Positions 6,945-12,559 of a stretch of 25,432 bases of DNA are shown in pieces (the first letter of the stretch is position 1; each line of letters starts with the position of its first letter). The stretch is from contig JBHLPL010000016.1 in assembly GCA_048939465.1 (NCBI GenBank), forward strand, positions 1-25,432, given 5' to 3'. The stretch comes from Promethearchaeota archaeon. Its GTDB lineage: Archaea; Asgardarchaeota; Odinarchaeia; Odinarchaeales; JBHLKK01. Made by a program: the position numbers and the translations under genes. The notes under the pieces were generated by a model, which did no database searches, had not been told where the DNA came from, and was given only the letters and a program-made list of their open reading frames with translations.

Positions 6945-8165
6945 TTACTCCCAAGGACGCTTGTCCAAAGACAACTTCTCCACTTGTTCGAGTACGTAAT
7001 TTCTAATTTCGGCTGGCTCGGGTAGCTTTGCAACTATCTCCCCTTCCCTGATGATTGGCTTGATTATTGAATCCGTTTCTGCCCCACAATTGGGGCAGGT
7101 CGGAGAAGCCTTATCCGAGGGCAAAACAACATCCGTCAGGCAATCTGGACATCTCCAAACATTCTTCCATCCTGAGAGCCTATCCCGCTTGGCCACAGGC
7201 AACCACTTGCCTTCTCTCAAAACTGTAACAATATCCATTGCAAAATCAACAGTCGGAGCATTGCTCACATATGTGCCAACACCAAAACCGTCCACCCCTG
7301 CTTTGCCTAGTTCTCTAACGCTTTCTTCGTTCATCCCTCCGGATACGAAGATCTTGACGTCTTTATGCCCTCTTATGTCAAGTTCCCATCTGACCTCGCG
7401 AACTATTTTTGAGAAGTCTCCCTTCCGAGTCTTGGGGGTATCCAGTCTGACTCCCCAAAGATTGTCTCCTAGCGCGTCTGCTGCCATCAGTGATTCCGCT
7501 TTTTCATCAGAATAGGTGTCACAAAGAGGTATGCGCGGTATATTGGAAGGCATAATCTCATCGTAAGCTTTCCAAGCTTCAACTTGGTTTCCAAAGATTA
7601 TGATAAGAGCGTGTGGCATCGTTCCTGAGGGTCTAAGACCCAGCATACGAGCGCTCAAAATGCAGGATACGCCGTCAAAGCCAGAGATATAGCACGCTCT
7701 AGAGATCATCGGACTAATTGCCGGATGCTGGCGTCTGATTCCGAAAGATATGACTATTTTTTTACCAGCGATCTTCTTTATTCGACTGGCGGCAGTAGCT
7801 ATTCCAGAAGCCTGACACAGAAAACCGAGCAGAGGAGTTTCAAAAACTCCGTATTCTGCATACGCTCCTTCTATTAAGAGCACAGGCTCACGAACATTGT
7901 TATAATCCGTAGAGTAAAAAACGCTCCCTTCTGGCATTGCATAAACATTAACAGGACATCCTTCAAGAAGATACGCCACTTCTTCGATTCCAGACGATAT
8001 CCCCCAAGGCCAGTGGTTCGGCAGACCGCCAGTTGTTACTTCTGCCGTTGCAACCACATCATCTAATCCTTTTTCTTTGAGAATTTGCCTGGTTCTCACG
8101 AAGTAGATGTCCGTGGTCTCACCTGATTTAATCTCTTCATCGGATGCTGTATGAAATCTCTTCAT
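6945..8165 (-). CDS. pncB: Nicotinate phosphoribosyltransferase with C-terminal zinc ribbon
   Basis: TDIYF, SFGIRRQHP, GTMPHAL, VRLDT, FVSGG, GFGVGT; CPDC...CPNC. Frame is open to 8210, but the ATG at 8165 (MKRFHTA) is the more typical start. Confidence 0.92.
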   Translation of the reverse strand: MKRFHTASDEEIKSGETTDIYFVRTRQILKEKGLDDVVATAEVTTGGLPNHWPWGISSGIEEVAYLLEGCPVNVYAMPEGSVFYSTDYNNVREPVLLIEGAYAEYGVFETPLLGFLCQASGIATAASRIKKIAGKKIVISFGIRRQHPAISPMISRACYISGFDGVSCILSARMLGLRPSGTMPHALIIIFGNQVEAWKAYDEIMPSNIPRIPLCDTYSDEKAESLMAADALGDNLWGVRLDTPKTRKGDFSKIVREVRWELDIRGHKDVKIFVSGGMNEESVRELGKAGVDGFGVGTYVSNAPTVDFAMDIVTVLREGKWLPVAKRDRLSGWKNVWRCPDCLTDVVLPSDKASPTCPNCGAETDSIIKPIIREGEIVAKLPEPAEIRNYVLEQVEKLSLDKRPWE

Positions 8166-8278
8166 CTCTCTCTTCCTCTCTAATTGGAGACTAGGGTTGA
8201 AGTTCATCAATTTCTACGTAATTTTTTTAGGTATCCGTACCTTTTCTATTTATCTGTTACGCGTATGAGGCCAAGAAG

Positions 8279-8827
8279 ATGTTTGCGTTACTGATTATAG
8301 ATATGTTAAACGACTTCATTAGAGAGAACTCTGTTCTGGAGGTTCCGAAGGGAAGAGAAATCATTCCAAATATCCAGAAGCTCATATCAAAGGCCGAGGA
8401 AAGAGGGATTCCTGTAATATATGTTTGTGATGCTCATGAAAGAGATGATAATGAATTCTTGGAATTCAAACCGCACGCTATAAAGGGGACCGCGGGGGCG
8501 GAAGTCGTGGAGGAACTCCACCCTAGAAAGGGAGATATTATTATCGAGAAGACGAAATTCGACGGATTCTACAACACAAAACTGGACATCACGCTAAGGG
8601 ACCTTATGGCGGATACGCTAATTATTGCGGGGGTTCTTACTGATATTTGCATATTGTATACTGCTGCTAGCGCAAGTATGAGAGAATACAGGGTGTATGT
8701 TGTTAGTGATGGAACAGCAACCCACGAAGAAGAAACACACAAAGGTTTTTTGGATTATATGGCGAATTCTGCAAGGGTAGCTAGCATCGTTGACACTCAG
8801 GGAGCGTTGCTATTAATGGAAGAATAA
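8279..8827 (+). CDS. pncA: Isochorismatase-family cysteine hydrolase, probably nicotinamidase
   Basis: Catalytic Asp (IIDMLNDF), Lys (EKTKFDGF), Cys (GVLTDIC); metal ligands DAH...PH; divergent from pncB. Confidence 0.8.
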   Translation: MFALLIIDMLNDFIRENSVLEVPKGREIIPNIQKLISKAEERGIPVIYVCDAHERDDNEFLEFKPHAIKGTAGAEVVEELHPRKGDIIIEKTKFDGFYNTKLDITLRDLMADTLIIAGVLTDICILYTAASASMREYRVYVVSDGTATHEEETHKGFLDYMANSARVASIVDTQGALLLMEE

Positions 8828-8854
8828 CCTGTGATCTGTTTTCTCAGAAATAGG

Positions 8855-8922
8855 TGGAGGTCTAGATCGTCGCGAGGTCATCATTTTTTATCAGACTGGG
8901 GTCGGCGTCTATCATTCCTCCA
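8855..8922 (-). ncRNA. Box C/D-like 2'-O-methylation guide sRNA with variant terminal boxes
   Basis: Minus strand reads TGGAGG-AAT-GA-TAGA-cgccgaccccagt-CTGA-taaaaa-ATGATGA-cctcgcgacga-TCTA-GA-CCTCCA. It has a 6-bp terminal stem, a 3-nt bulge plus tandem GA kink-turn closed by a 4-bp stem, perfect D' and C' boxes, and 13- and 11/12-nt guides. Confidence 0.8.
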
Positions 8923-9047
8923 GCAGTAAATAGGGGTATTGGTTCTAAAAAACTTATGGAATCCTAACGAACGAAAGAAGAGTCCATAAAGCTTAAATAA
9001 GCAATTCAGCGACAGAAAATCTAGAATTACAGAATATCTTAATCGGT

Positions 9048-9191
9048 GGGCCCGTAGCTCAGTCAGGTAGAGCACCGGGCTTTTAAACCCTGGTGCTTCC
9101 TTGTGAAGAAACCCGGTGGGTCGTGCTGCAAATCGCACGCGAGCCGCTGCAATCTGCAGAATCGTGGGTTCGATTCCCGCCGGGCCCGCCA
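9048..9191 (+). tRNA. tRNA-Lys(UUU) with a 37/38 intron (9086-9110, 25 nt) and a composite 46/47 insertion (9120-9161, 42 nt); CCA encoded
   Basis: Removing both segments gives a 77-nt cloverleaf: GGGCCCG/CGGGCCC acceptor, GCTC/GAGC D stem, CCGGG/CCCGG anticodon stem with CTTTTAA loop, GTGGG-TTCGATT-CCCGC T arm. The 37/38 BHB helix is CTTT:GAAG. Confidence 0.93.
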
Positions 9192-9207: not shown

Positions 9208-9816
9208 CTAAGACACTTTGACGGATACGCTCAAACCTCGTCCTGCATCGATTGGCAAGATTACTGTGCTCCATTTCTCTGGATTCGTGATTTCATTGAC
9301 AAAATCTTCCATCCTTTCGCGGTGGGATACTGTATTATGTGCAGTAACTATACTTCCTGCTTTTAGTTTGGGGAACATCGAGGTCAAATACATAAGATAC
9401 TCGTCTTTTGCTCCATCAATAAAGGCAAAATCTATTTCTACATCAAGTTTATCAATCTGGTCTATCGCATTTCCATGAATTATCTCGATACAGTCTGCTA
9501 TTCCTTCTAGATCCTCGATCTTGCTTGCCTTCTTTAAATTGGATTTAGCAGCTTCAGCTCTTTCCGAGCTTCTTTCGATTGTATATACCTTTCCTACACC
9601 ATCGCTGTCGATCAAACCTTTTGCAAGCCAGAGCGCAGAATATCCAACTCCTGTTCCAACTTCAACGACATTGACAAAATCTCTAGGTTGTGCGTACATA
9701 CGAAGCAGAATGCTTAGGAATTCCCCGCAATCCCGAGAAATCGGATGATAGCCAAATCTCTGTCTGCTGATCTCATCCATCAGATTTAAGAATGATTTTG
9801 ACATCATGATTTTCAC
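9208..9816 (-). CDS. O-methyltransferase (Methyltransf_3, COMT/YrrM-like)
   Basis: VVEVGTGVGYSALWLA, VYTIE, FAFIDGAKDEY, VTAHN. Confidence 0.88.
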   Translation of the reverse strand: MKIMMSKSFLNLMDEISRQRFGYHPISRDCGEFLSILLRMYAQPRDFVNVVEVGTGVGYSALWLAKGLIDSDGVGKVYTIERSSERAEAAKSNLKKASKIEDLEGIADCIEIIHGNAIDQIDKLDVEIDFAFIDGAKDEYLMYLTSMFPKLKAGSIVTAHNTVSHRERMEDFVNEITNPEKWSTVILPIDAGRGLSVSVKVS

Positions 9817-12430: not shown

Positions 12431-12559
12431 GGGCCCGTAGCTCAGGTAGGTAGAGCGTCGGTCCATTTAGTCGATGGGACGAAGCTCTTAACCCGATGGA
12501 CTGTTAAGCGCATGGTTTAACAGGTCGAATCAGGGGTTCAATTCCCCTCGGGCCCGCCA
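12431..12559 (+). tRNA. tRNA-Lys(CUU) with introns at 30/31 (12462-12483, 22 nt) and 46/47 (12500-12529, 30 nt); CCA encoded
   Basis: Spliced product is a 77-nt cloverleaf (TCGGG/CCCGA stem, CTCTTAA loop, AGGGG-TTCAATT-CCCCT). The 30/31 intron has a full BHB (GAG:CTC, CGTC:GACG, CCAT:ATGG). The 46/47 intron has helix CGAT:GTCG plus a CTGTTAA/TTAACAG stem. Confidence 0.95.

Follow-up and report, generated by a model that had tools for sequence, protein, structure and literature searches.

A probable dual-guide box C/D sRNA of the sR110 family with an all-Watson-Crick terminal k-turn stem in an Asgard archaeon

The sR110 RNA of Sulfolobus acidocaldarius is a box C/D sRNA that reads GAUGAUGA-CGCCGCUCCAGU-CUGC-AGU-AUGAUGU-CAACGCGACGAG-CUGA (supplement of Dennis et al., 2015; PMC4644070). 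It was detected by RNA-seq with a coverage of 5636, and its target entry is 'NP NP', i.e., no target was predicted for either guide (Dennis et al., 2015, BMC Genomics 16:632; PMC4644070). In the same work, the equivalent of E. coli G2251 is predicted to be methylated in three archaea. In E. coli itself, the ribose of G2251 is methylated by RlmB (PMC11542601). A 2024 review table additionally equates Gm1950 of H. marismortui with E. coli Gm2251 (PMC11542601). However, Grosjean et al. (2008) aligned Gm1950 with E. coli C1909 and showed no haloarchaeal counterpart of Gm2251 (PMC2584109), and because of this conflict Gm1950 was rejected as an archaeal precedent for Gm2251.

The consensus spelling of the terminal boxes of such guides is RUGAUGA for box C and CUGA for box D. 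K-turns with a Watson-Crick pair at position 3b.3n do not fold in Mg2+ alone but do so upon L7Ae binding, and human U4 snRNA has a natural G-C pair at this position (PMC4382518). Consensus box C/D k-turns need protein for folding too (PMC5689011). Non-canonical K-motifs are the reason why 3-11% of the sRNAs of Pyrobaculum and Pyrococcus escape covariance models (PMC6009581).

The locus described here lies in the window, i.e., the whole 25,432-nt stretch of an archaeal contig that was analyzed. Positions 8922..8855 on the minus strand very probably encode a 68-nt dual-guide box C/D sRNA with predicted methylation sites in the P-loop and helix 89 of 23S rRNA. Judged by its guides, it is a member of the Sac-sR110 family and not a new RNA class, and it is only mildly surprising. 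From the sequence we infer that the RNA is transcribed, assembled into an RNP and used to direct the methylations themselves.

Anatomy and conservation of the sRNA locus

On the minus strand, the elements follow each other in the order TGGAGG-AAU-GA-UAGA / CGCCGACCCCAGU / CUGA / UAAAAA / AUGAUGA / CCUCGCGACGAU / CUA-GA / CCUCCA. The terminal (canonical, C) stem is formed by UGGAGG (8917..8922) and CCUCCA (8855..8860), and this pairing is seen in the sequence, the fold and the covariation. The variant box C, AAUGAUAGA (8908..8916), is identical in two congeneric genomes and aligns with the C box of the orthologues. It comprises the AAU bulge (8916-8914), the GA of the sheared pairs (8913-8912) and the non-canonical (NC) stem strand UAGA (8911-8908). 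The variant box D, CUAGA (8861..8865), provides the opposite GA of the sheared pairs (8862-8861), which abuts the closing stem, and together with the preceding U8866 it gives UCUA (8866-8863), which forms four Watson-Crick pairs with UAGA. Box C thus reads AUGAUAGA instead of RUGAUGA, with an extra A before the final GA, and retains the functionally essential UGA (the bulge U and the sheared GA), while box D reads CUAGA instead of CUGA. Despite this spelling, C stem, 3-nt bulge, tandem G.A/A.G pairs and NC stem are all present in both sequence and fold.

The internal boxes have the consensus spelling in the sequence and in the orthologue alignment. Box D' CUGA (8891..8894) and box C' AUGAUGA (8878..8884) enclose the 6-nt spacer UAAAAA (8885..8890), which varies in length and sequence among orthologues, and together the three elements have the layout of a k-loop. 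The D' guide CGCCGACCCCAGU (DNA CGCCGACCCCAGT; 8895..8907) is 13 nt long, and CCCCAGU, its 3' part, can pair with the 23S P-loop. The D guide CCUCGCGACGAU (DNA CCTCGCGACGAT; 8866..8877) is 12 nt long and can pair with the 5' strand of helix 89. Counted from box to box as spelled above, both are close to the usual spacer of about 12 nt. If the G.A pairs serve as the reference points, C and D' are 17 nt apart and C' and D 15 nt, as compared with 15 and 14 nt in the consensus.

The original prediction had described consensus internal boxes, one extra A in each terminal box, mutually complementary changes, and a retained AAU bulge, tandem G.A pairs and TGGAGG/CCTCCA closing stem, and all of these features are found in the sequence. 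The fold agrees with this layout: the RNAfold minimum free energy is -16.2 kcal/mol (z = -2.45 against shuffled sequences), and the structure consists of the 6-bp terminal stem and the UAGA/UCUA helix, split by an asymmetric AAUGA/GA loop. In this predicted structure, a loop of this kind between two helices is the two-dimensional footprint of a k-turn. The prediction had also presented consensus internal and variant terminal boxes as a reversal of the usual state, in which C' and D' are degenerate. This describes mainly eukaryotic RNAs, while archaeal C' and D' boxes are better conserved according to a review (PMC7994747).

Upstream of the sRNA, the conserved block GATTCCATAAGTTTTTTAGAACCAATA (8937..8963, minus strand) would be its own promoter. 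It contains the TATA-like sequence TTTTTTAGAA (8952-8943), which ends 20 nt before the terminal stem, and orthologues of the Odin genus have AAAGTTTTTAG upstream at a similar distance. Directly past the 3' strand of the stem lies the U-rich tract UAUUUCU (8846..8852, minus strand; UUUUU in the two congeners), a possible archaeal terminator.

The sRNA adjoins a QRPTase-family phosphoribosyltransferase gene (6945-8210, minus strand) and an isochorismatase/PncA-like ORF (8279-8827, plus strand), which are likely an NAD-salvage pair. Two tRNA genes are found on the plus strand at 9048-9188 and 12431-12556 (Rfam, 50.3 and 43 bits). The first is 141 nt long and reads as tRNA-Lys(UUU). It has two insertions, one of 26 nt in the anticodon loop and another of about 43 nt that separates the anticodon arm from the T arm. 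ARAGORN reported zero tRNAs and missed both genes, because these neighboring tRNAs contain introns. Beyond the tRNA-Lys gene lies an O-methyltransferase-family ORF (9208-9816, minus strand).

The source genome (G000) is an archaeal MAG of 152 contigs with 43% G+C and 91% completeness, belonging to the same GTDB class as Odinarchaeum, and it was compared with two congeneric MAGs (G001 and G002). A congeneric MAG record (JBHLKK010000072.1, L035) is labeled 'Candidatus Hodarchaeota', and genome search placed the genus in the same order and class as Odinarchaeum-like genomes. Genes for the RNP proteins are present: fibrillarin (PF01269, 325.7 bits) and Nop5 (PF01798, 235.7 bits) are adjacent on contig C116, and L7Ae (PF01248, 100.2 bits) lies on contig C69.

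In the aligned intergenic regions of the three congeneric genomes, 68/68 nt of the sRNA are identical, and the upstream block is nearly invariant. The 35 nt past the sRNA 3' end and the 14-nt spacer between promoter and stem, on the other hand, carry many substitutions. This conservation of 68 nt between diverging flanks shows that the sRNA is real. Exactly one copy was found in each of the 7/7 genomes of the class. A sequence-only covariance model (R1), built from 12 orthologues (alignment A2), matched 47/151 Asgard genomes sampled across the phylum. Exact-pattern scans additionally identified orthologues in a Thermoprotei MAG, in Nitrososphaerales and in the genome of a Nanoarchaeota isolate. 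In metagenomes, 49 contigs with an orthologue were picked up by a looser pattern. A metagenome scan with the Odin-type guide pattern gave zero matches. Pattern-based retrieval demanded consensus internal boxes, so their invariance among those matches is partly built in, and the model-based Asgard matches include the D' variants CAGA, CGGA and CCGA as well as C' variants. The orthologues occupy unrelated genomic contexts in several archaeal phyla.

Rfam contains no family matching the sRNA, either at gathering thresholds or at E<=10, and DdR13, the best sub-threshold match, reached 13.9 bits where the threshold is 65. Orthologues from Odin, Heimdall and Asgardarchaeum likewise have no match, in line with the earlier description of the element as unannotated. 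Like alignment A2, model R1 and the published sR110, the window sRNA carries ..CYCCAGU before D' and ..GCGACGA. before D. The family spans Asgard archaea, Thermoproteota (Sulfolobus, Thermoprotei and Nitrososphaerales) and Nanoarchaeota, and with this broad spread it may be among the most widely retained methylation guides of archaea.

Terminal k-turn spellings among orthologues

The pairs of the terminal k-turn were counted in Python for 43 distinct orthologues anchored on the G.A pairs. This anchoring was chosen because indels in the boxes misalign the termini in the MAFFT alignment, for which RNAalifold was uninformative. At 3b.3n (n=43), we found G.U in 15 orthologues, U.U in 8, A-U in 7, A.G in 5, C.U in 3, G-C and U-A in 2 each, and A.A in 1. 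At 4b.4n (n=43), G-C was found in 27, A-U in 6, U-A in 4, G.G in 3, and C-G, U.G and G.U in 1 each. Thus, 4b.4n is a real covarying pair, and the textbook U.U, absent at 3b.3n from 35/43 orthologues, is in the minority. The C-stem pairs -1 to -4 show 3-5 standard pair types each, and sliding the 3' strand by one position destroys the pairing (n=43). Since the parser demanded at least three stem pairs, pairs -1 to -3 are partly forced, while pair -4 and the pair types are not.

Terminal boxes are spelled in many ways within the family. Boxes C and D read GAUGAAAU/UGGA in Odin, GAUGAGCGA/GCGA in Asgardarchaeum, GAUGAUUU/AUGA in family f4, AUGAAGA/CGGA in genome G104 and GAUGAAGUA/ACUGA in soil Nitrososphaerales, and Heimdall orthologues have the consensus. 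Box D of the orthologues is found as CUGA, AUGA, GCGA, CGGA or CAGA, apart from UGGA in Odin. In the window genus, the NC stem consists of U-A, A-U, G-C and A-U pairs, one more than the three pairs of the consensus (U.U, G-C, A-U). In the comparison with Odin, the C side is free of gaps and the D side is longer by one nucleotide, while full pairing is regained through substitutions in both strands, i.e., the changes are compensatory, as originally proposed. In the closing stem, the Odin orthologue has GUAGAGG/CCUCUAC, where an A-U pair substitutes for a G-C pair of the window sRNA. The GAUAGA/CUAGA pair is a lineage-specific k-turn spelling that is confined to one locus and one genus.

These counts have a practical consequence. 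Annotation searches that demand terminal RUGAUGA and CUGA boxes miss real guides, given that the textbook U.U at 3b.3n occurs in only 8/43 orthologues.

Predicted targets in 23S rRNA and the methylation register

No SSU or LSU rRNA is assembled in G000, G001 or G002, and pairing of the guides was therefore judged on rRNA of the Odin genus and other Asgard archaea, with E. coli numbering checked on rrlH. On Odin-genus rRNA, each guide is complementary to a segment that includes an N+5 target nucleotide.

The D guide forms 11 pairs, including 2 G.U, with the 5' strand of helix 89 as represented by Odin rRNA GUCGUCGCGGGC. The target corresponds to E. coli 2456-2467, directly after GGGGAUAACAGA, and N+5 falls on U2460. 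A perfect match to the window D guide would read GUCGUCGCGAGG. The pairing is maintained by changes on both sides in other lineages. Odin rRNA GUCGUCGCGGGC and the Odin guide GCCUGCGACGAU have 12 paired positions, of which 2 are G.U; in G073, rRNA GUUGUCGUGGGU pairs with D guide GCCUACGACAGU; and in G040, rRNA UUGUCACGGG pairs with D guide CCCGUGACAA. Both G073 and G040 differ from Odin (G003) at rRNA positions 2458 and 2462, and their D guides have changed in step.

The D' guide core CCCCAGU is complementary to the P-loop sequence (G/A)CUGGGG at E. coli 2247-2253, with N+5 on G2251. Guides of the GCCGUCCCAGU type, found in most Asgard orthologues, form 11 pairs with the P-loop target ACUGGGGCGG(U/C), in which ACUGGGGCGG corresponds to E. 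coli 2247-2256. Covariation is seen here as well: GGU in G073 rRNA goes with ACC in the guide, and GGGGUGGC in G104 rRNA goes with guide GCCACCUC. The D' guides of the window genus and Odin have one or two extra nucleotides compared with other Asgard guides, and on the Odin P-loop they form 7 contiguous pairs, then a bulge (one A in the window guide), then 3-4 more pairs. In the window guide, the CGCC after the bulged A can pair with a downstream CGGC... segment. This pairing is weaker than the 11 contiguous pairs of other Asgard archaea.

Other rRNA sites were considered for both guides. A segment at Odin LSU 1106, ACUGGGGUU, matches the D' guide exactly over 9 nt, and it is not conserved in those Asgard genomes that keep the guide core; the P-loop was preferred because it explains all lineages. 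For the D guide, the helix 93 segment ACCGUCGUGAGA (E. coli about 2589-2600) is a poorer match in Odin and G073 and remains a minor possibility. It is the best D-guide match only in G104, a MAG with 12% contamination whose LSU gene may be from another organism. A genome-wide search for guide complements outside rRNA in G000, G003/G004 and G073/G029 returned chance-level matches only, and those inspected lie in protein-coding sequence.

Two Asgard LSU genes, L078 (G029) and L079 (G073), are 3.4 and 4.1 kb long. Shortly before the helix 89 target, they have ...GUAGCCCUGAACAGAG in place of the conserved GGGGAUAACAG, which suggests an insertion or an intron in the peptidyl-transferase centre (PTC) region beside the guide target.

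The anatomy and the targets can be combined in a mechanism along known lines. The terminal boxes would fold into a standard simple k-turn with C stem, AAU bulge, sheared G.A/A.G pairs and an all-Watson-Crick NC stem, while the consensus D' and C' boxes would form a k-loop. L7Ae would bind both motifs, whereupon Nop5 and fibrillarin would assemble. The D' guide on the P-loop would then place fibrillarin at the equivalent of E. coli G2251, and the D guide, paired with the 5' strand of helix 89, would bring N+5 to U2460; with a ruler that starts at the G.A pairs, N+5 would be G2459. Since both predicted sites lie in the PTC, about 210 nt apart, the sRNA may also hold the two rRNA strands together during folding.

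Which of the two helix 89 nucleotides is methylated depends on how the distance is measured. The extra NC-stem pair might move the fibrillarin ruler by one nucleotide, so that the D guide methylates the equivalent of G2459 and not U2460, which we regard as possible but rather unlikely. The distance from C' to the GA of box D is 15 nt in the window genus and 14 nt in most orthologues, which favors such a shift. The 15-nt distance also occurs together with a consensus CUGA in G040 and Nitrososphaerales (AUA-CUGA), where guide and target pair in the same register and N+5 falls on G2459, i.e., both registers exist in the family. However, a count that starts at the C of CUAGA leaves U2460 as the site in the window genus. 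A ruler set by the G.A pairs would give G2459, while a ruler set by the first paired guide nucleotide would give U2460. Such spacing changes can reportedly lower or shift methylation, according to in vitro work from the Maxwell lab. If the shift is true, the family would switch between adjacent PTC sites through changes in box D or beside it, with an unchanged guide. This would be retargeting by box change rather than by guide change. The 14- and 15-nt registers are both found, apparently repeatedly, in Asgard archaea and Nitrososphaerales.

The original prediction had also raised the option that only the D' half directs methylation, i.e., that the non-consensus terminal k-turn disables the D guide and leaves the sRNA as a half-mer. 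While boxes C and D indeed each deviate from RUGAUGA/CUGA by one inserted nucleotide, the bulge, the tandem G.A pairs and both stems of the k-turn are intact, and the majority of orthologues likewise do without U.U at 3b.3n. Within the genus, the D guide does not vary. Its complementarity to rRNA is the longest (11 pairs, as compared with the interrupted D' pairing), and it shows compensatory changes with helix 89 in three other lineages. Furthermore, box motifs are needed in vivo for maturation of the whole sRNA (Tripp et al., reviewed in PMC7994747). We therefore consider a half-mer very improbable, and the dual-guide reading is retained in what follows.

Chance expectation, significance and comparison with known systems

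Individual motifs of the sRNA are no better than chance, while the complete architecture is unique in the genome. The 1.96-Mb genome contains 16 copies of the internal motif CTGA-N(2-10)-RTGATGA, with about 17 estimated for random sequence, and GATAGA...CTAGA occurs 12 times in the genome and 12 times in a reversed-genome control. A relaxed k-turn scan was open to any NC-stem spelling, provided that GA was present on either side, that the bulge measured 3 nt, that the closing stem had 5 bp or more and that there were internal boxes. It gave 3 matches in the genome and 1 in the control, and the sole convincing match is the window sRNA.

These scans bear on the suggestion that the terminal boxes mark a variant guide class, in which several sRNAs of the organism share a GA-UAGA...UCUA-GA k-turn. 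The genome-wide search that had been proposed for such a k-turn returned the motif at its chance frequency and no other occurrence with sRNA architecture. The scan for any spelling was convincing at the window locus only, and orthologues of other lineages are spelled in many other ways. A distinct class is thus very improbable. Least credible of all, an explanation as a chance motif or a non-sRNA element, e.g., the terminator hairpin of the convergent pncA-like gene, could draw on the chance-level single motifs and on the location, which is 28 nt beyond the stop codon of the isochorismatase-family ORF and on the strand opposite to this ORF, but is contradicted by 68 perfectly conserved nucleotides between diverged flanks and by orthologues in unrelated contexts across archaeal phyla whose guides covary with rRNA.

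The genome seems to contain very few recognizable C/D sRNAs. Strict scans of G000 for consensus C/D sRNAs found none, and scans of the same genome for a terminal stem with consensus boxes gave unconvincing matches only. A box-score scan gave two matches (control 0), one of which is a second plausible box C/D sRNA on contig C15 at about 1553 (plus strand). It reads GUGAAGA-11 nt-AUGA-10 nt-AUGAUUA-12 nt-CUGA with a 5-bp closing stem AGAGC/GCUCU, and its 3b.3n pair would be A-U.

With the window sRNA, a dual-guide member of the sR110 family, an Asgard genome gains a probably functional gene that had not been annotated. The sRNA also provides plausible targets, the P-loop G2251 and helix 89 U2460/G2459, for a family whose Sulfolobus member was published without any. 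The predicted P-loop ribose is also methylated in bacteria and eukaryotes by other means, and the known mechanism of box C/D guides is left unchanged.

Compared with the consensus archaeal box C/D k-turn, the window sRNA has the same C stem, 3-nt bulge, tandem sheared G.A/A.G pairs and NC stem, and the genome has the same L7Ae, Nop5 and fibrillarin genes. The consensus has U.U at 3b.3n followed by G-C at 4b.4n, whereas the window sRNA has U-A and A-U, then G-C and A-U, without any U.U, and on the D side its guide lies one nucleotide farther away. It resembles the k-turn of U4 snRNA (McPhee, Huang & Lilley, 2014) in having a Watson-Crick pair after the G.A pairs. However, U4 belongs to another RNA and RNP and has a G-C pair, while the window sRNA has a U-A pair in a methylation guide.

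With respect to the target, E. coli RlmB acts on the same conserved ribose (Gm2251) that is predicted for the D' guide, but as a stand-alone protein enzyme. In yeast and Arabidopsis, the snoRNA-guided Gm2619/Gm2620 of 25S rRNA (PMC11542601) is again the universally conserved ribose predicted as the target of the window sRNA, and no sequence homology between the window sRNA and eukaryotic P-loop snoRNAs was detected (no Rfam match). Among archaeal guides, Pyrobaculum calidifontis sR36 and Thermoproteus tenax sR107 carry the P-loop element GCCGUCCCAGU directly upstream of CUGA. In these RNAs the element is the D guide and is combined with another second guide, while in the window sRNA it is the D' guide and is combined with a helix 89 guide.

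The closest likeness is to sR110 itself. Both RNAs are dual-guide C/D sRNAs with the same guide cores (CGCCGCUCCAGU / CGCGACGA) in the same order, the D' guide being CGCCGCUCCAGU in sR110 and CGCCGACCCCAGU in the window sRNA, and the D guide CAACGCGACGAG and CCUCGCGACGAU, respectively. While in sR110 the terminal boxes (GAUGAUGA/CUGA) follow the consensus and the internal ones (CUGC/AUGAUGU) are degenerate, the window sRNA, with consensus internal and variant terminal boxes, is its mirror image.
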